From Gemmatimonadota bacterium (lineage in GTDB: Bacteria; Gemmatimonadota; Gemmatimonadetes; Gemmatimonadales; GWC2-71-9): a stretch of DNA of 64,000 nt. Below the pieces are notes generated by a model. The model was not told where the DNA came from, made no database searches, and was given only the letters and a program-made list of their open reading frames with translations. Every line of letters begins with the position of its first letter. Position 1 is the stretch's first letter. Positions 50,580 to 58,924 of this stretch are shown here, one piece after another. The stretch is taken from the NCBI GenBank assembly GCA_025357945.1, contig JANYLJ010000019.1:8668-72667 (forward strand), in the 5' to 3' direction. Made by a program: the position numbers and the translations under genes.

Positions 50580-50612
50580 GGCAGTCAATCAACACGGGTA
50601 GCGGCATTCTGA

Positions 50613-50665
50613 CAATATAACAAATAACCACTTGACATATTGCGGTTTATCGCGATGTTACTGGC
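50613..50665. promoter_or_regulatory. AT-rich divergent promoter/operator
   Basis: TTGACA at 50632-50637; inverted repeat CAATAT-N18-ATATTG (50613-50642). Confidence 0.55.
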
Positions 50666-50737
50666 GCCGGGTCAGTTCACGCCCGCTCAAACGGCGGATC
50701 CCGGCGTCAGCCACGGAATTCTCACCTCGGAGAAAAA

Positions 50738-51292
50738 ATGCAGTTCACCATCCTCGCAACGCTCGCCGTCCTGATCGCCCCACTGCCGGGCACGTCGGCC
50801 CCGCCAATCGCCGCTCCGCGCGACGCCGTCGTGGTTCGTATCGCGCTCGACGATCCGACCATTGTGGCGATCTACGATGCGGCGAATACCTATGACATCG
50901 CGACCGGCGCGCTCGGTGCCAAAAGGGCAACCACGGCGGCGATCCGCGACTACGCCACCATGCTGGTGACAGTCCACACCAGTGCCCGCCAGCAGGGACG
51001 GGATCTCGCCAAGAAGCTCGGCGTAACGCCGACGCCCCCGAAGGTGAACCCGCTCGCCGCAGACCACTTCGCCGCCATGAAGACGCTGAATGGCCTCTCC
51101 GGGAAGGCATTTGATAAGGCGTTCCTGGAAAACGAAGTTGCGTATCACAAGGCGGTCATCGCTGCGATTCAGACGACACTCGCGCCGGCAATCCAGAACG
51201 CCGAACTCAAGGCACTGGTGGCGACGGTTTCCCCCGTTTTCGTCCAGCACCAGCTGGCGGCCGAGCAGTTACTGGCCAAGATGACGATGTAA
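50738..51292 (+). CDS. DUF4142 secreted ferritin-like protein
   Basis: Signal peptide; AN..DI..G.L, VR.YA.ML...H, L..LSGKAFDKAF..NEV.YH. Confidence 0.88.
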   Translation: MQFTILATLAVLIAPLPGTSAPPIAAPRDAVVVRIALDDPTIVAIYDAANTYDIATGALGAKRATTAAIRDYATMLVTVHTSARQQGRDLAKKLGVTPTPPKVNPLAADHFAAMKTLNGLSGKAFDKAFLENEVAYHKAVIAAIQTTLAPAIQNAELKALVATVSPVFVQHQLAAEQLLAKMTM

Positions 51293-51414
51293 TATCGGGC
51301 CGGCTTCCGAGGGTGTAGCCACGCTATTGCGAAGTGACCCGCGTGTAAGTTAGGGCGGCAGGGCCGTCTCCCTCCCTGGCACAACGGTCACTTCTACTCG
51401 GGCGGGGCGGATTC

Positions 51415-52509
51415 ATGGGACCTTTCAAGCGTTTGATCGACATCCTCACCCTCGGATCCGATCGACCGATCCGGCGGCTGTTCGCCTACTACGTGATCGT
51501 CGCCGCCGTGGTCGTTGTCATCTTCCAAGTTGTCCCCACGGCCGGCACCCTGATCAAGGGCGACCATGTCAGGACGCTGACCACGAACTCACAGCTGCTG
51601 CAAGACGGACTGTCGGCGACCAAGGACAAGGACAAGGCGACCGAAGCTCCCCGTGAAACGGGCATCGACCTCGCGCTGACGACCGTCATCGTGATGCTCA
51701 GTACGCTGGCGTTGATGCTTCCTGTGAGCTGGGTGTTCATGTCGGCACGACGCGCCCACGACTTCAATCAGGGCGTGGTACAAACGCTGATCATCCTTCC
51801 CATCGTCGTCGCCGGCATCGTCCTGGTGGTGCGCACCAGCCTGGCGCTGGCGTTCAGCCTGGGCGGCATCGTCGCCGGCCTCCGCTTCCGGACGACCCTG
51901 CGGGACGTCCGCGACACCGTGTACATCTTTCTTGGCATCGGCGTTGGTCTTGCGGCAGGAGTACAGTCGCTCATTGTGGCCGCTGTGCTCTCGGTGACAT
52001 TCAACTTCGTCGTGCTCCTGATCTGGCGGTACGACTTCGGCCGCAACGTGCTCGAGCCGACGGCGGCGTCGCAATGGGCTGAACCCCTGGGCGACCTGGC
52101 GGAGCGGAACACCGATGACAGCGTACCGGATCGCGATCTGGTACTCGCCCTCTCTCCCAAGAAGGCCGCGGTGCTCGCGAAGCGATTCAACCGCGTTCGC
52201 AAGATGCTCGGCCCAACCAAGAAGAAGCCCCGCTTCAATGCGATCCTTACGGTCAGCACCGAATCGCTCAGTGAGGCCCAGACTCGCGTCGAAACGGTGT
52301 TGAACGCGCTCGCGCGTCGTTGGCGCCTGGATCAGGTGACCACGACCGAGGGCAAGCCGGCGGAACTCTATTATCTGGTGGGCATCCGCAAGAACGTCAC
52401 CCGGGATCGCTTCCTGACGGCGATACGTGAGAGCGCTGGCGACAAGATCCTCACCGCGACCATGGAAATCGGCGATGCCGTGGCCCAGGAGAAGCAGGAA
52501 GCAAAGTGA
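51415..52509 (+). CDS. DUF4956 family inner-membrane protein
   Basis: SLALAFSLGGIVAGLRFRTTLRD..D.VYIF..IGVGLAAG; C-terminal ACT-like domain. Confidence 0.85.
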   Translation: MGPFKRLIDILTLGSDRPIRRLFAYYVIVAAVVVVIFQVVPTAGTLIKGDHVRTLTTNSQLLQDGLSATKDKDKATEAPRETGIDLALTTVIVMLSTLALMLPVSWVFMSARRAHDFNQGVVQTLIILPIVVAGIVLVVRTSLALAFSLGGIVAGLRFRTTLRDVRDTVYIFLGIGVGLAAGVQSLIVAAVLSVTFNFVVLLIWRYDFGRNVLEPTAASQWAEPLGDLAERNTDDSVPDRDLVLALSPKKAAVLAKRFNRVRKMLGPTKKKPRFNAILTVSTESLSEAQTRVETVLNALARRWRLDQVTTTEGKPAELYYLVGIRKNVTRDRFLTAIRESAGDKILTATMEIGDAVAQEKQEAK

Positions 52510-53420
52510 CGCGCCGTCCGATCCTGGTCGCACTGCTGGCCGCACTCGGAGCCGGCACGGGATGCGCGAAACCCGCGACACGCGACACCCTCGCCAGCGA
52601 CAGCCTGTTACTCAACCAACGCCAGGCCAGACTCGACCGCGCCCTCGCCAACCCGGACAGCGTCGCGGCAGGCACGCCGATCGCACTCTGGCAGCTTCCC
52701 GACCAGCTCAAGGAGATCTCCGGCCTCGCGCTCACCGCGAATGGCCGGCTACTGACACACGGAGACGAGCGGGGCAAGGTGTTTGAGGTCGACTACCGAC
52801 AGGGCATCGTGGTCAAGGAGTTCACTGTTGGATCTCCCGCGGTGCGCGGTGATTTCGAGTCGATCGCGATCGTCGGAGACACGGTGATGCTGCTCACCAG
52901 CGACGGCGTGCTCTACCGCTTCGCGGAAGGATCCAATGGCGCCGTCGTGGAATACACCGTTCGCGACACCGGGCTTGGCGTCGAATGCGAGTTCGAGGGC
53001 ATGGCATTTGACGCGTCATCCCGGTCGCTCCTGCTCGCATGCAAGAGGACGCACGACAAGGCGCTGAAGGATTCCCTGGTCATCTTCCGCCTGCCCGTCG
53101 AGCCCGGCAAGGACGGCAAGGTCCAGAAGCCGTCGCACTTGTCGGTTCCGCTGACCAGGGTCATCGGCGCGAACGGATGGGGCGGCTTTCATCCGTCCGA
53201 CATCACGGTCAACCCATTCAACGGCGACTACGTGCTGGTGGCCTCGCGCGAGAAGGCGCTACTCGAGATCACCCCGACCGGAGAGGTGGTCTTCGCCCGT
53301 CCACTTCCCGCAGGCCACGACCAAGCGGAGGGCGTCGCGATCACCAAGGACCATATCCTCATTGTCAGCGATGAGGCCAAGGGCGGCCCGGCCCTGCTCA
53401 CGCTGTATCGGTGGCCCTGA
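52506..53420 (+). CDS. SdiA-regulated/YjiK-like beta-propeller lipoprotein
   Basis: Lipobox-like GTGC; EISGL, HGDE.G, DFESI, FEGMAFD, PSDI, QAEGVA, SDE. Confidence 0.85.
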   Translation: MTRRPILVALLAALGAGTGCAKPATRDTLASDSLLLNQRQARLDRALANPDSVAAGTPIALWQLPDQLKEISGLALTANGRLLTHGDERGKVFEVDYRQGIVVKEFTVGSPAVRGDFESIAIVGDTVMLLTSDGVLYRFAEGSNGAVVEYTVRDTGLGVECEFEGMAFDASSRSLLLACKRTHDKALKDSLVIFRLPVEPGKDGKVQKPSHLSVPLTRVIGANGWGGFHPSDITVNPFNGDYVLVASREKALLEITPTGEVVFARPLPAGHDQAEGVAITKDHILIVSDEAKGGPALLTLYRWP

Positions 53421-56044
53421 TGACAATCGTATCCGGCAGTGCCAGGGCGGCGTCCACAACGCGACGCGTTGCTGCCGCGTTGCTGACGTTGGCGCCGGCC
53501 GCCGCACCGGCCCAGAAGCCGGCGCGCGATCTGCTCAGTACCGACAGCGTCACCGTCTCGGCCGGTGCGGAGTACAAGGCAGGTGGGATGCATCGATTCC
53601 TCCTGGGCGGTACTTACCGCGACCTCTGGCTCATGCCGATCCGGGCACCGGTGTTGAACCTGCGCACATTCGACGGCGGGTTGAAGCCCGAGAAGGCCGG
53701 CGGCGGCTTCGAGACAAAATCCCTGCGATTGATCGCGCCGGACGGAGTGGAGTACACCTTTCGCTCGGTGGACAAGACCCACGGCCCGATCCCGGCGGGA
53801 CTGGCCGACGTGGCAATGGCGAACAGCATCGCGAGCGATCAGACCAGCAGCAGCCACCCGGCGGCGAACGTGATCGTCGCGGCATTACTCGAGGCCGCCG
53901 GCGTGCTGCACGAATCGCCCGTGCTGGTCGTGATGCCGGACGACACCTTGCTGGGAAAGTATCGCAAGGGGTTCGCGCACCGGCTTGGTTTACTCCAGCT
54001 TTATCCCAGGAAAACCAAAGGTGACACGCCCGGCTTCGCCGACGCGATCGATATCATCGATAGCGACACGTTGCTGCATTTGCTCGATCGCGATCCGGCG
54101 GAACGGGTCGATGCGCCTGCGTTCCTCGCGGCGCGCCTCATCGACATGCTCGTCAACAACTGGGATCGCCATCCGGGACAATGGAAGTGGGCACGGCTGC
54201 AGCCCGCGCCGATGGGGGCTTGGGAGCCGATCTCGCGGGACTACGACAAGGCGTTCATTTCGGTGTCAGGGTTCCTCCCGGGTGTGGCCCGGCACGCGTT
54301 CGCGAACCTCATCACGTTCGACAGCACGTACCCGAGCGTGCATGCACTGACGTGGAACAGCGTTTCGCTGGATCGGCGCCTCCTCGGCGGTCTTGCGAAA
54401 CCGGTGTGGGACTCGGTCGCGCGCGCCGTGGCGCAACGGATCACCGACTCGGTGATCGACGCGGCGCTCCGGGCAATGCCGGTGGAATATCGACCGTCGG
54501 CACCGGCGCTGACCGCGAAGCTCCGGGTGCGGCGTGATTCGTTGCCGGCGATCGCCGACCGAGTCTACCGCTACCTGACAGGCGTTGTTGACATTCACGC
54601 AACCGACGCTGCCGATCACGCCACGATCACCCGGGTGGATGACCGATATGTCGAGGTTCGCCTCGAAGCCCGCGACAGCATGCCGTATTTCCTCCGCCGG
54701 TTTGACGCCAACGAAACCAGCGAAATTCGCGTCTACCTCCACGGCGGCGACGACCAGGCACGCGTGATCGGTGACGTGCCCAGCAGTATTCCGCTGTGGA
54801 TCGTTGGCGGCAACGGTACCAATCGCCTGGCCGATTCTTCCAGCGTCGGCGGCCGGCACAACACGACCCGTTTCTACGATGTCGGCACCGTGAGCGGCGT
54901 TACTTACCCGCCTGACACGCTGTTCAACCGACGACCAATGGTCAACAGATTCGGTCACCTGGTCCCGCCCGGCAAGGACTACGGCGTCGGCACGTCACCG
55001 ATCATCGGCCTCAGCATCACTCACGACATGGGCATCCAGCCACGTCTCGGCATGACGTGGTACCGCTACGGCTTTCGTCATGACCCCTACGCCAGCATGG
55101 TAGCGCTGGAGGGACGCTATTCGTTCAAGATCGGTGGATACCGGCTCGCGCTTACCGCCGACCAACGGCGGGAGAGCTCACCACTTCACTTCACCGAGCT
55201 CGCGCGAATGTCGCAACTTGAGTTGGTCAACTTCCACGGCTTTGGCAATTCGTCGCCGCAGAGCCCCGGGCTGGTTCCTAACGTATCGGCGCCGCGGACC
55301 GACTATTACGCGCTCAATCAGCGGGAGTGGCTATTCCAGCCCGCTCTTGCGCTCGCGTTGGGGCCGACGACCGTCCTGTCGTTCGGGCCAGTGCTTCAGT
55401 ATTCCGTCATCGACAGCACACCGAATCGGTTTGTGTCGGCAACACGTCCGTATGGGTTCGGCCATTTCGGCGAGGCCGGGTTGCGCTTCAACCTGTATCG
55501 CGATGACCGCGCCCCGCCGCGGCATGCCCACCGCCGCACGGTACTGGACCTGAGCGCGAGCTATTTCCCAGCCCTGTGGGATGTCCGGAGCGCATTCGGC
55601 GTGGTCAACGCCACCGGCGCCGTCTACTTCACGATTCCGGTGCCGTTGCATCCGTATCTGGGATTGCGGGGTGGCGCCAAGAAGGTGTTCGGAGACTTTC
55701 CGTTTCAGGAATCGGCGTTCATCGGCGGCCGGACCGACGTTCGGACGCTCGACCTGCAGCGGTACGCTGGCGATGCGTCCCTCTACGCCACGGCCGAGCT
55801 CCGGATTCCCGTGGCGAAGTTCACGGTGCTGCTGCCGTTGAATGTGGGCCTCCTCGCCACTGAGGACTTCGGCCGCGTCTACGTAAAGGGTGACTCACCC
55901 GGCGGATGGCACAACGCATTCGGCACCGGATTCTGGGTCGCGTTTCACGAGCTCTCGCTTGATATCAGGGTAATGCGCGCCAACGAAGTCGGCCGCCCGG
56001 CTGTCATCGCGCTCCGATTCGCAATACCAGGAGTGATTCAATGA
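53420..56044 (+). CDS. Secreted atypical-kinase-like domain fused to an Omp85 (BamA/TamA-like) barrel
   Basis: Signal peptide; GGGFETKS, YTFRSVDK, DML..NWDRH..QW, PI.RDYD; C-terminal IGG..DVR....RYAGD.SLY..AELR and D.GRV strands. Confidence 0.75.
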   Translation: MTIVSGSARAASTTRRVAAALLTLAPAAAPAQKPARDLLSTDSVTVSAGAEYKAGGMHRFLLGGTYRDLWLMPIRAPVLNLRTFDGGLKPEKAGGGFETKSLRLIAPDGVEYTFRSVDKTHGPIPAGLADVAMANSIASDQTSSSHPAANVIVAALLEAAGVLHESPVLVVMPDDTLLGKYRKGFAHRLGLLQLYPRKTKGDTPGFADAIDIIDSDTLLHLLDRDPAERVDAPAFLAARLIDMLVNNWDRHPGQWKWARLQPAPMGAWEPISRDYDKAFISVSGFLPGVARHAFANLITFDSTYPSVHALTWNSVSLDRRLLGGLAKPVWDSVARAVAQRITDSVIDAALRAMPVEYRPSAPALTAKLRVRRDSLPAIADRVYRYLTGVVDIHATDAADHATITRVDDRYVEVRLEARDSMPYFLRRFDANETSEIRVYLHGGDDQARVIGDVPSSIPLWIVGGNGTNRLADSSSVGGRHNTTRFYDVGTVSGVTYPPDTLFNRRPMVNRFGHLVPPGKDYGVGTSPIIGLSITHDMGIQPRLGMTWYRYGFRHDPYASMVALEGRYSFKIGGYRLALTADQRRESSPLHFTELARMSQLELVNFHGFGNSSPQSPGLVPNVSAPRTDYYALNQREWLFQPALALALGPTTVLSFGPVLQYSVIDSTPNRFVSATRPYGFGHFGEAGLRFNLYRDDRAPPRHAHRRTVLDLSASYFPALWDVRSAFGVVNATGAVYFTIPVPLHPYLGLRGGAKKVFGDFPFQESAFIGGRTDVRTLDLQRYAGDASLYATAELRIPVAKFTVLLPLNVGLLATEDFGRVYVKGDSPGGWHNAFGTGFWVAFHELSLDIRVMRANEVGRPAVIALRFAIPGVIQ

Positions 56045-57030
56045 GATTCCGTCCGCTCGCCCTGGCGATGTTCGTGCCCTTGGTGGCATTCTCATGCAAG
56101 ATCCCGGTGCAGATCACACCGGCGCCAGCCGCGGCCTCCGCAGCGGAGGTCGCGGTGACCGGCGCCTCCGTGATGATCGGCGTTGGCGATATCGCCGTGT
56201 GCGGCACTGACGGAGACGAACGGACGGCCAAACTTGTCGACAGCGTGCTTCGCGCCGACAGCGCGGCAAAGGTGAATGACGAGGTCTTTACCCTGGGTGA
56301 CAACGCGTACCCCGACGGTTCGGCGAGCAACTTCGCGCTCTGCTTCGCGCCATCGTGGGGTGACTCCAACAAGCGCATCATGAAGAAGATCCATCCTGCG
56401 CCAGGAAACCACGAACACCAGAGCGTCGGCGCAGCACCGTACTACCAGTACTTCGGAAGCCACGCCGGTTCTTCGAAAAAGGGCTACTACAGCTACGACG
56501 TGGGCGAGTGGCATGTCATCGTGATCAACAGCGAGATCGTCATCAACGGCGCCTTCTCCGACGCCGAGCGGAAGGCGCAGGAGGACTGGCTACGCACCGA
56601 GCTCAAGGGAAGCCAAAAACTCTGTACCCTGGCGTACTGGCACCATCCACGCTTCAGCTCGGGCTGGCACGGTGACGACGTGTCGCTGCACCCCATCTGG
56701 CAGCTCCTCTACGACGGCGGTGTGGACCTGATTCTCAACGGGCACGATCACGAGTATGAACGGTTCCTCCCGCAGAACCCGCTGGGAGTCGCTGATTCGG
56801 CGAAAGGGATGGCTGAATACGTCGTTGGCACCGGTGGCGGCGACCTGCGCGGCTTCAGGACCAATCTCAGCGCGAACAGTGCCGCTCGTGTCCAGGGGTA
56901 TTTCGGTGTCCTCAAGCTGACACTTGGAAAGGCCGAATGGCGCGCGGCATTCCTGGATGTCAGCGGCCGCGTCTGGGATCCAAGCGGTGGCACGTGCCAT
57001 CAGCAGCCCGCAGCGGCCCCGGGCAAGTAG
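56041..57030 (+). CDS. Calcineurin-like metallophosphoesterase lipoprotein (purple acid phosphatase-like)
   Basis: Lipobox VAFSC; GDIA, LGDNAY, GNHE, HHP, GHDHEYER. Confidence 0.93.
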   Translation: MRFRPLALAMFVPLVAFSCKIPVQITPAPAAASAAEVAVTGASVMIGVGDIAVCGTDGDERTAKLVDSVLRADSAAKVNDEVFTLGDNAYPDGSASNFALCFAPSWGDSNKRIMKKIHPAPGNHEHQSVGAAPYYQYFGSHAGSSKKGYYSYDVGEWHVIVINSEIVINGAFSDAERKAQEDWLRTELKGSQKLCTLAYWHHPRFSSGWHGDDVSLHPIWQLLYDGGVDLILNGHDHEYERFLPQNPLGVADSAKGMAEYVVGTGGGDLRGFRTNLSANSAARVQGYFGVLKLTLGKAEWRAAFLDVSGRVWDPSGGTCHQQPAAAPGK

Positions 57031-57101
57031 GCAACATCGGCCGGACGGCCGTTGTCGGCCCCGGGAGCTCTTCAACCGTTTCCCTTGGTGTGAGGTGTCC
57101 C

Positions 57102-57641
57102 ATGCTGGTTGGAATTTTCGCAGCGATCATGGTGATGCAGGCCGGGACCGCCGGGCCGCCGCTGAGCCCCGCTCCCCACGACCCGGTCGTCCAGCGCACC
57201 GACGACGGCATGGTACTCGGCACCATCGGCGCCGTCGACGCAAACGAGCTCGAAGAAGCCAAGCTGGCGGCGACCAAGGCCAGCACGAGCGAGGTCCGCA
57301 ACCTCGCCACCGCGCTGGTGAAGGACCATGGGCGTTCATTGCAAACTGGCGCCCGGCTCGCCAAGCAGTTTCATATCGCGCGGCTTCTGCCCGCCGACTC
57401 GGCAATGGCGAGGGCGCATGTCGTGGAAATGGTGCAACTCAATACGCTGACCGGAGCGGCGTTCGACAAAGCCTTCGTCGAATACACCCTCGCCGATCAC
57501 ACGGCCGTGATCGTCAAGATCAAGGCAACGCTGCTGGCGGCGGCCAAGCGTCCGCAAGTGAAGGCGTTCGTCCGCGCACTGTTACCAGAACTGGCTGCGC
57601 ATCAGCAAAGCGAAGCAAAATGGCTGGCGGCTCACCCGTAG
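57102..57641 (+). CDS. DUF4142 secreted protein (second copy)
   Basis: GAGG RBS; E...AKLA..KA...EVR.LA..LVKDH, L..LTGAAFDKAF....DH. Confidence 0.88.
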   Translation: MLVGIFAAIMVMQAGTAGPPLSPAPHDPVVQRTDDGMVLGTIGAVDANELEEAKLAATKASTSEVRNLATALVKDHGRSLQTGARLAKQFHIARLLPADSAMARAHVVEMVQLNTLTGAAFDKAFVEYTLADHTAVIVKIKATLLAAAKRPQVKAFVRALLPELAAHQQSEAKWLAAHP

Positions 57642-57648
57642 CCGCGGA

Positions 57649-58488
57649 CTAGAACTGGAGCGCTTTCAGGTATTCGTAACTCGCCTTGGCGCTGGCCATC
57701 GGATCGGCTGGCTGGTCATGCTCCACGAAGTAGTGTTTGATCCCGGCCTCCTTCCGGTGCGCGAAGAGCTCGGCCCACTTGATGGTTCCCTTGCCAACAT
57801 CCTCCATCACGTACGTCGGCGCTGGGCCCGCGTCCTTGACATGCACGATCGGAAACCGACCCGGCCAACGCTTCCAGTACGCCAGCGGATCGCCGCCGCC
57901 CTTGGTGATCCAGTAGAGATCCATTTCAAAGTCGAGCTCGCTCGGCTTCGTCAGCTCAAGCAGGTGGTCATAGATCCGCTTGCCGCCAACCTCGCGGAAT
58001 TCGGCGTCATGATTGTGGTAGCCGATTCTGATCTTGTAAAACTTCGCGTCCTCGGCCGCCTTGTGGATCAGGCCGGTGGTCCGCTTGATCGCATCGAAGG
58101 AGTTGATGTCCGAGTCAGCGGCCGAGGCGATCACGAGCCACTTGTGCTCGATCTCCGCGGCGTCGCTGAGGGTACGGTTCCACGGGCCGCGTAACGCGTC
58201 GAGCGAGATGTGCGCGGCTGGCGCACTGAGACCGTTGTCGTCAAGCAGCTGCTTGATCGCCCGGGGCGGACGCCCGAAGTAGTTGTTGGCAAACTCGACT
58301 TCCTTGTATCCGACCTGGGCCACCTGCGACAACGTGCGCTCGACGCTCCCCTTCATCTGGTCGCGCACGGTGTAGAGCTGCAACCCGATCTTGTCGAGGT
58401 GGTCCCAGGCAAACGACGAATTCGGCAGCGGCAGCGTCGCGGCCGCCGCGGCACCACCGGCAGTCTTGACGAATGTGCGACGGTCCAT
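57649..58488 (-). CDS. Tat-exported sugar phosphate isomerase/epimerase (xylose-isomerase-like TIM barrel)
   Basis: DRRTFVK; GLQLYTVR, YHNH..EF, EMDLYW, HVKD, VEHD. Confidence 0.92.
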   Translation of the reverse strand: MDRRTFVKTAGGAAAAATLPLPNSSFAWDHLDKIGLQLYTVRDQMKGSVERTLSQVAQVGYKEVEFANNYFGRPPRAIKQLLDDNGLSAPAAHISLDALRGPWNRTLSDAAEIEHKWLVIASAADSDINSFDAIKRTTGLIHKAAEDAKFYKIRIGYHNHDAEFREVGGKRIYDHLLELTKPSELDFEMDLYWITKGGGDPLAYWKRWPGRFPIVHVKDAGPAPTYVMEDVGKGTIKWAELFAHRKEAGIKHYFVEHDQPADPMASAKASYEYLKALQF

Positions 58489-58558
58489 CGGGGACCTCCA
58501 GAATGGTCTGGGCGAAAGATAGCGTCCGGGCGGATGCGGCGTCCCAACCGCGCGAACG

Positions 58559-58924
58559 CTACCCCTCGCCGGTGCCGCCATCCTCCAGATGCACCCGGTG
58601 CAGCAGCCGGTGCAAGACCGGGGTGAGCAACACTGCGGACGCGGCGATCAACACCAGGCCAGCGTACAGGGCATAGATCCCGGCAAACAGCTTGCCCGAC
58701 GCCGTTGGAATGTCGCCAACCGGACCCATCCCGCCCAGCAGCATTGCCGCGTTGAGGAAGGAGTCGATCCAGCTGAAACGCGCCAACACGTGGTAGCCGA
58801 CCATCCCCAGCAGTAGCGAGGCCAGGACGATCGCGAGGGCGATCAGGAAGTGCCACCACACGCGTTGGAGGAATTTCCGTCGGGATAGCAGTGGCTGACT
58901 GCGATGTTCGTAGCGGTGTGCCAC
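58559..58924 (-). CDS. Small 2-TM protein with potassium-channel-like pore architecture
   Basis: GM.GYH....SWIDSFLNAAMLLGGMGP......GKLFA..Y. Confidence 0.75.
   Translation of the reverse strand: MAHRYEHRSQPLLSRRKFLQRVWWHFLIALAIVLASLLLGMVGYHVLARFSWIDSFLNAAMLLGGMGPVGDIPTASGKLFAGIYALYAGLVLIAASAVLLTPVLHRLLHRVHLEDGGTGEG

Follow-up and report, generated by a model that had tools for sequence, protein, structure and literature searches.

The periplasm holds no ATP, and how phosphate might be added there in a regulated manner is an open question. It arises in a particular form for a 64,000-nucleotide stretch of DNA (the window) from a Gemmatimonadota bacterium (NCBI GenBank assembly GCA_025357945.1, contig JANYLJ010000019.1, positions 8,668 to 72,667 of the forward strand). 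There, an open reading frame (ORF) at 53420-56044 on the plus strand encodes an 874-amino-acid kinase-like/Omp85 fusion protein (P0001), which an earlier note, made from the letters of the DNA, had read as an atypical kinase-like passenger on an Omp85-type barrel. Could such a protein be an enzyme held in the outer membrane, which side of that membrane would it face, and what might serve as its phosphoryl donor? We find that P0001 almost certainly unites a signal peptide, a kinase-like domain, an all-beta linker and a 16-strand Omp85 barrel on one polypeptide. The kinase-like front half on an outer-membrane barrel is previously unrecognised, and none of the papers returned by our literature searches describes a kinase fused to Omp85. 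On balance, we favor the view that P0001 is an outer-membrane-anchored, periplasm-facing phosphotransferase belonging to a polyphosphate-linked, four-gene envelope module.

The front half of the protein, residues ~36-388 (53525-54583), was modelled with AlphaFold2 as part of a construct covering residues 36-500 (m830f02fd2087; 57-row alignment), and the resulting model was confident (predicted local distance difference test [pLDDT] 93.5, predicted TM-score [pTM] 0.93). A Foldseek search of the PDB returned CtkA (E 9.4e-7), Shewanella HipA (2e-6) and the Golgi casein kinase Fam20C (3.4e-5) at the top, followed by PI4KII-alpha (1.2e-4) and CotH (1.6e-4). VIA-align, run against 48,161 chains, ranked CotH first (Z 15.4, 247 aligned, root-mean-square deviation 4.1), then PI4KII-alpha (Z 15.1 over 252 aligned residues, and 14.7) and CtkA (Z 13.1), with ATM and actin-fragmin kinase (~11) after it; kinase-fold proteins made up all 50 of the 50 entries listed by VIA-align. 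These fold matches cover model residues 1-395, the remainder of the model having been barely probed. Since the matches from both programs are to kinases, the domain adopts, according to the model, a bilobal protein-kinase-like fold, closest to kinases of the 'atypical' branch, and the earlier suggestion of a kinase-like N-terminal fold was borne out.

The active-site elements of such a fold have recognizable counterparts in P0001, and every motif that had been singled out earlier was found again, at the same positions, in the translation of 53420-56041. The Gly-rich loop GGGFET (residues 94-99; 53699-53716) lies between N-lobe strands 1 and 2, which the model places at residues 89-94 and 101-105. 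The strand YTFRSVDK (residues 112-119; 53753-53776) carries R115 and K119, the latter a candidate counterpart of the beta-3 lysine. The catalytic loop, DMLVNNWDRHPGQ (residues 242-254; 54143-54181), contains DRH at 54164-54172, and the RDYD motif (residues 273-276; 54236-54247) supplies D274 and D276 as candidate metal-binding, DFG-like residues. From D249 to Q254, the protein keeps the D+5 spacing of the kinase HRD...N, in which the Asp is catalytic and the Asn binds metal, and RDxD sits after two short strands in the model, as DFG does in kinases. This mapping of residues to kinase elements was made from the order in which secondary-structure elements occur and from an alignment with the catalytic loop of CtkA; the same order suggests that the conserved residues line one cleft.

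Conservation of these residues was assessed in two alignments, one of 57 diverse full-length relatives (A3) and the other of 40 kinase domains (A4) excised from loci that belong to several phyla. In A3, R115, K119, D249, R250 and D276 were each present in 57 of 57 sequences, D274 in 56 and H251 in 54, and the Gly-rich loop retained G94 in 46, G95 in 51 and G96 in 55. All 40 domains of A4 shared G63, R67, W70, G86, G87, R115, K119, D242, D249, R250, H251, W257, D274, D276, D318 and R371. The conservation of DRH and RDxD across phyla held in both alignments, and the motifs are no accident of the sequence. A DRHxxN signature had also been invoked, and here the DRH part stood while the Asn did not: the motif in P0001 reads DRHxxQ, and position 254 in A3 is Gln in 48 sequences, Asn in 8 and His in 1, so that 56 of 57 carry Gln or Asn.

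Such a substitution invites the reading that the kinase-shaped module is non-catalytic and binds polyphosphate, a nucleotide or a client protein, while the real job of the Omp85 part is assembly or transport. Pseudokinases are common, and the Gln in place of the usual Asn would suit one. Such a reading would also be in line with a study of the patatin-Omp85 protein PlpD, which states that assembly or translocation is the task of every Omp85 protein studied before (PMC11116518). However, the candidate catalytic Asp, the metal-binding Asps and the strand Lys/Arg are conserved across several phyla, at 57/57 apart from D274, which is unusual for pseudokinases, and some relatives do have the Asn. 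Because of this pattern of catalytic-type residues, we favor an active enzyme over a pseudokinase and consider a purely binding module unlikely; judged by its conserved residues, the kinase-like domain is probably an active phosphotransferase.

At the sequence level, the domain stands apart from the families that its fold recalls. P0001 gave no Pfam match at E <= 0.1, whether to PI3_PI4_kinase, to the HipA/CtkA families (PF07804, PF20613) or to any other family, and at E <= 0.01 the 57 relatives likewise gave none, HipA/CtkA included, besides Omp85/ShlB on the barrel. A single-sequence search of the PDB with the kinase-barrel protein yielded no matches, and a profile of the kinase domain yielded only non-significant ones, the one kinase among them being CtkA (E 0.93-1.3), which was aligned over the catalytic loop only, on its own DRH loop. 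In a protein atlas, the nearest named clusters were CotH (0.79) and HipA_2 (0.78), values which lie below the trusted level and often arise by chance. Because no known kinase family is matched by sequence, the domain is filed here as a separate kinase-fold family that would resemble CotH, CtkA and PI4KII in its working and is apparently a member of none of them.

The best VIA-align match, CotH (PDB 5jda/5jd9; PF08757), is reported to be a kinase of atypical fold whose catalytic residues are D228 and D251 (PMC7821199); their spacing is similar to that of D249 and D274/D276 in the present domain. CotH and the kinase-barrel family each have a DUF4956 gene and an enzyme that makes polyphosphate as partners, the CotH set being outlined in a preprint (bioRxiv 10.1101/768473). 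Unlike CotH, the present domain is fused to an Omp85 barrel, and the polyphosphate enzyme of its relatives is PPK1 or CYTH-PPK1, not VTC. CtkA from Helicobacter pylori (PDB 3akj-3akl), which with HipA heads the Foldseek matches, shares with the present loop the pattern [GN]-x-DRH-x-x-[NQ]-W followed by a P-I-x-D region, in a sequence match that is itself non-significant (E 1.3). Proteins of the CtkA/HipA type are cytoplasmic or injected, whereas P0001 is predicted to be exported and anchored by its barrel. PI4KII-alpha (PDB 4hnd/4pla) has a DRH-type catalytic loop and membrane association in common with it; however, this is a eukaryotic lipid kinase, and the likeness to the present DRHxxQ-containing domain is at the fold level only.

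The predicted export of P0001 depends on its leader. Residues 1-32 (53420-53515) read as a Sec signal peptide with an AxA-Q type end, as suggested by the N-terminal sequence together with the low model confidence of residues 1-30 (pLDDT <50 at residues 1-9 and 23-30), and the putative cleavage site falls next to Q32, which is nearly invariant in an alignment of relatives (A1). A twin-arginine signal was considered for the RR of the leader and dropped, as RR is not conserved in A1. An alternative in-frame start, GTG, lies at 53411. ORFs on the opposite strand within the kinase-barrel gene, such as 54266-54958 (minus), were set aside as shadow ORFs of a high-GC gene (GC 0.63-0.66).

In a full-length model (pLDDT 88.9), the kinase-like domain is followed by an all-beta segment, residues 389-491 (54584-54892), and then by 16 long strands running from residue 523 to 868 (54986-56023). 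The latter form the Omp85-type barrel which had been anticipated for the C-terminus: Foldseek matched them to BamA, TamA, FhaC and Sam50 with E down to 6.3e-10 and a TM-score of up to 0.77, normalised to barrel-only TamA. The NCBIfam model Omp85_fam (NF047779) aligned to residues 707-843 at a sub-threshold level (E 1.2e-8; 34.9 bits vs a cut-off of 200), and PF01103, unmatched in P0001 itself, was present in 37 of the 57 relatives. Between strands 11 and 12, the model has a long loop containing the loop-6 motif GGRTDVRTL (residues 769-777; 55724-55750), which is also covered by profile alignments to a POTRA-domain Omp85 protein (9ccg) and to BamA. Its VRTL (residues 774-777) is indeed the counterpart of VRGF/Y, in a variant form of the family motif; the loop motif of the relatives is the canonical [LV]RG[LFYW], with R775 in 55/57 and G776 in 32/57.

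The linker occupies the position usually taken by POTRA domains in Omp85 proteins. Pfam returned nothing credible on residues 389-507, and no POTRA domain was detected either by Pfam or in the model, which has strands only at 389-491; the linker fold was not searched alone. These results bear on the possibility that P0001 is a type Vd-like autotransporter, whose barrel would export the kinase-like domain to the surface, or release it, for action outside the cell. PlpD, the 'type Vd' precedent, has its enzyme domain ahead of the Omp85 barrel, the same order as here; a signal peptide is present; and FhaC, a protein-translocating Omp85 relative, is among the fold matches. In PlpD, however, the barrel is preceded by a patatin lipase domain and POTRA, where P0001 shows a kinase-like domain and then an all-beta linker. 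In addition, a study of PlpD reports that its enzyme domain stays in the periplasm, and that export of its N-terminal domain through the barrel is contested (PMC11116518). Moreover, relatives without a barrel carry an inner-membrane-type anchor, and the proteins encoded by the coupled genes (see below) are lipoproteins or membrane-anchored, although the last point is not decisive, as surface lipoproteins exist in related phyla. The secreted passenger of the earlier note is thus not supported, with POTRA undetected and the PlpD enzyme domain itself reported to be periplasmic, and we regard export through the barrel as unlikely.

A periplasm-facing kinase-like domain, by contrast, is a good deal more probable, because the domain precedes strand 1 of the barrel and because the location reported for the PlpD enzyme domain, the inner-membrane anchors of the barrel-less variants and the envelope-bound partners are each in keeping with that placement. 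In the barrel-less relatives (P0317, P0320 and P0321; ~466-476 amino acids), a single hydrophobic anchor at the N-terminus leads into the kinase-like domain, which is followed by a portion of the beta linker. An 84-kb contig carries one of the three, and a second represents 18 sequences spread over 4 contigs.

If the domain is a periplasmic phosphotransferase, its partners may indicate what it spends. The kinase-barrel gene is the third of a unit of four on the plus strand, in which it is preceded by genes for a DUF4956 inner-membrane protein (51415-52509, 364 amino acids; PF16316, E 3.2e-8, above the curated cut-off) and for a beta-propeller lipoprotein of SdiA-regulated/phytase-like type (52506-53420, 304 amino acids; PF06977, E 3.7e-6), and followed by one for a metallophosphoesterase lipoprotein (56041-57030, 329 amino acids; PF00149, E 6.8e-13). 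To judge from the sequence, the four genes are translationally coupled via overlapping stop and start codons: the DUF4956 stop overlaps the propeller start in GTGA, the propeller stop and the kinase-barrel ATG (53420) share one base in TGATG, and the kinase-barrel stop overlaps the metallophosphoesterase start in ATGA. All four products are envelope proteins, judged by their leaders. The DUF4956 protein, whose topology was read by eye, combines ~6 hydrophobic segments with a C-terminal basic domain (~160 amino acids), for which Pfam gave nothing credible. The propeller has its lipobox Cys at residue 20 and a phytase-like match below the cut-off (PF13449, E 5.4e-4), and the metallophosphoesterase, with motifs that we take to resemble those of purple acid phosphatases, has its lipobox Cys at residue 19. 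A complex prediction pairing the kinase domain and linker with the beta-propeller gave no answer either way (score 0.01, mark 0.32).

The kinase-barrel protein is widespread. At E <= 0.001, 1028 homologues were found among 8000 scored candidates, the 120 listed being full length and unnamed or 'hypothetical protein', and 3795 clusters at 50% identity were recovered, 1495 of them at E <= 1e-30. In the sources, members are named 'hypothetical protein', 'BamA/TamA family outer membrane protein' or 'metallophosphoesterase', with no Pfam model or functional name. From at least 600 matches in species-representative genomes, 80 loci were kept for neighborhood analysis, of which 62 are from Gemmatimonadota according to the record titles (6 of these from Longimicrobium/Longimicrobiales) and 18 from Ignavibacteria-type bacteria, Bacteroidetes/Chitinophagaceae, KSB1, Acidobacteria, Poribacteria, Latescibacterota, Calditrichaceae and one unclassified source. 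The genome of origin (3.01 Mb, 99.8% complete) contains one copy of the gene. Because the gene is present in 28 of 101 sampled Gemmatimonadota genomes, a tally that counts the unpublished genome G053 as one positive, we take it to be accessory. In 16 of the 80 loci (L013, L026, L028, L032, L041, L045, L050, L061, L068, L073, L074 and L080 among them), the kinase-barrel cluster is represented by two or three large ORFs, which mostly stand in tandem on the same strand.

The neighbors in the window recur beside these relatives. Searches of the 80 loci by tblastn with the window proteins detected DUF4956 at 41 loci and the propeller at 38, and at 19 a phosphoesterase homologue lay downstream. In the 42 loci flanked by at least 3 kb in either direction, where neighbors were identified by profile hidden Markov models, DUF4956 was found in 25, the propeller in 25, a metallophosphoesterase in 11, PPK1 in 10 and PPX in 2, and 29 of the 42 had DUF4956, PPK1 or PPX. 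In distant homologues of the propeller, an N-terminal membrane anchor replaces the lipobox. PPK1 was an unexpected neighbor, present in 22 of the 80 loci. In eight loci (L024, L027, L028, L030, L032, L039, L041 and L042), a long PPK1 of 1042-1173 amino acids lies on the strand of the kinase gene, directly adjoining it in seven and ~1.2 kb downstream of it in L042. These long proteins have an N-terminal extension of ~330 amino acids (e.g., L039:7121-10345), in which CYTH (PF01928) scored above the cut-off in both of the two scanned (L039 and L041); beyond CYTH, the sequence has a Nudix-like look, judged by eye only. In a subgroup of the Gemmatimonadaceae, PPX follows the phosphoesterase.

The phosphoesterase is joined to the kinase-barrel unit in another way in Bacteroidota-type proteins. 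P0249 (1335 amino acids) has PF00149 ahead of the unit, and the same fusion was found in all four long proteins checked (~1220-1335 amino acids), namely P0249, P0345, P0388 and one of the three kinase-barrel copies in L045 (copy 3). The kinase domain of P0345 was recognized at residues 385-738 (hhalign probability 100%, E 3.8e-80), and P0388 aligned with the present family over 858 columns (BLASTP 4e-80); in both of these ~1220-residue proteins from cultured Bacteroidota, a kinase-like domain lies unannotated between PF00149 and the barrel. Of 8000 candidates scored with residues 40-470 of P0249, upstream of the kinase part, 2262 proteins of 734-2337 amino acids were recruited at E <= 1e-5, many of them, by source name, from Spirosoma, Larkinella, Chitinophaga and Roseivirga. 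P0360 (859 amino acids), among the matches to the fused family, has an ATP-grasp domain (CPSase_L_D2) and a phosphoesterase-type N-terminal region. The fused long proteins match the 'Metallo' Omp85 subfamily, defined by Heinz and Lithgow (2014; PMC4104836) as PF00149 plus Omp85; the word 'kinase' is absent from the main text of that paper. In the 'Metallo' proteins PF00149 is on the same polypeptide, whereas P0001 is without it and has a separate PF00149 gene immediately downstream.

A precedent for the combination of genes comes from Gram-positive bacteria, where a set of CotH, polyphosphate polymerase (VTC) and DUF4956 genes is described in a paper on Pel (bioRxiv 10.1101/768473), the only one among our literature search results to mention it. 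In the sampled Gemmatimonadota, CotH lies within ~2 kb of DUF4956 for 3 of 5 CotH genes, two of these cases being in G092 and G011. The locus L084 (G099:C1:4637745-4641773) holds a CotH lipoprotein gene, an ORF that is VTC-like by eye and a DUF4956 match (E 8.8e-46), and on the strength of this gene set, with the VTC assigned by eye, the classical triad appears to exist in the same phylum. As in that module, DUF4956 is linked in the window to an exported kinase-fold gene, here coupled through the propeller gene; no polyphosphate-synthesising gene adjoins the unit in this genome, and in relatives PPK1 is present in 22 of the 80 loci. Because polyphosphate genes recur in the loci of relatives, and because of the Gram-positive set and the CotH-DUF4956 pairs of Gemmatimonadota, we lean towards a polyphosphate-linked role for the module. 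The earlier idea of a phosphoryl donor supplied via DUF4956 draws its support from the same gene context, that is DUF4956, PPK1 and PPX as neighbors of relatives, and from nothing else that we found.

In such a module, the barrel would serve as the outer-membrane anchor of the enzyme domain. Polyphosphate made in the cytoplasm by PPK1 would pass to the periplasm with the help of DUF4956, for which we propose a part in transport, and the kinase-like domain could then draw on polyphosphate, or on a different donor that is not ATP, in phosphorylating a target in the envelope, perhaps a protein, a lipid or a glycan. The phosphoesterase or phosphoesterases would reverse the reaction or trim the product. 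Periplasmic phosphorylation of lipid A by LpxT uses a non-ATP donor, and the first isolate of Gemmatimonas was obtained as a polyphosphate accumulator. Polyphosphate as the phosphoryl donor is put forward tentatively, with the odds rather against it. The general scheme, in which PPK1 (VTC elsewhere) feeds DUF4956 and DUF4956 feeds an exported kinase-fold enzyme that spends polyphosphate and not ATP, with a metallophosphoesterase as eraser, is somewhat doubtful as a whole.

Several findings weigh against a polyphosphate-linked phosphotransferase. First, the kinase-like domain matches no Pfam kinase family and has Gln in place of the usual Asn at position 254, and its membership in the CotH family was rejected, as hhalign against seven canonical Gemmatimonadota CotH proteins gave a probability of 3% (E 0.015) and PF08757 was not matched. 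Second, we know of no polyphosphate-using enzyme with a kinase fold. Third, the DUF4956 profile matched nothing meaningful in the PDB, VTC subunits included, and since no solved structure was matched, a channel role for this protein has no structural basis. Fourth, the metallophosphoesterase of the window is only weakly similar to the fused domains (BLASTP E 0.003 and 0.057); it was therefore rejected as an orthologue of the fused one, and the phosphoesterase link holds at the superfamily level. Finally, PPK1 of this genome is on another contig and no VTC domain was found in it, none of the five neighbor families occurs in 10 of the 42 loci with full flanks, and 7 of the 28 kinase-positive Gemmatimonadota genomes (G019, G023, G029, G053, G066, G077 and G079) have no DUF4956 match. 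The link to DUF4956 is thus frequent, not obligatory; a match is present in 21 of 28 kinase-positive vs 25 of 73 kinase-negative genomes, figures that are descriptive and no statistical test, as the genomes are related.

The same gene context could be read as a machine for exporting or displaying polyphosphate, in which the chain made by PPK1 would pass through DUF4956 to the barrel, which passes or anchors it after the kinase-like domain has loaded or attached it. The association with DUF4956, PPK1, CYTH-PPK1 fusions and PPX would be accommodated, as would the fact that the parts span the whole envelope. However, the model barrel is closed and of Omp85 type, like BamA and TamA, with no sign of a pore in the analyses run, and PPK1 is unlinked in this genome; we consider such a machine improbable. 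A system for scavenging phosphate, in which the propeller and metallophosphoesterase would hydrolyse imported organic phosphate or polyphosphate and the kinase-like domain would bind or transfer the product, might be suspected from the two putative phosphoesterases of the operon, from the sub-cut-off phytase-like match of the propeller and from the metallophosphoesterase fusions. Yet hydrolysis needs no kinase-type active site, the gene repeatedly linked in relatives is PPK1, a polyphosphate-synthesising one, and neither a Pho box nor a phosphate transporter came to light, although no search was aimed at them; scavenging seems very improbable. We continue to favor the periplasm-facing, polyphosphate-linked phosphotransferase.

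Recognition of a kinase-fold domain with intact catalytic residues changes the reading of a whole class of Omp85 proteins and ties them to polyphosphate genes. Source names identify cultured carriers of the fused form in Spirosoma, Larkinella and Chitinophaga, in which the idea is testable. If it is true, a polyphosphate-driven periplasmic kinase would be a general bacterial route to regulated phosphorylation in an ATP-free compartment, and in Gram-negative lineages the Omp85 barrel would anchor a polyphosphate-spending enzyme to the outer membrane.

Around the four-gene unit, a promoter and terminator scan of 50600-58700 gave nothing beyond shuffled expectation and was of no help with the operon boundaries. 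Two DUF4142 paralogues flank the unit on the plus strand, at 50738-51292 (PF13628, E 6.5e-31) and 56937-57641 (E 4.4e-19), the second overlapping the listed phosphoesterase ORF at its end; among the 80 related loci, only 1 showed a DUF4142 neighbor. In two Ignavibacteria-type loci (L057:10684-11934, minus strand, and L069), a gene for an HD-domain protein with PycTM, a Pycsar effector-type membrane domain, lies just downstream of the kinase-barrel gene.

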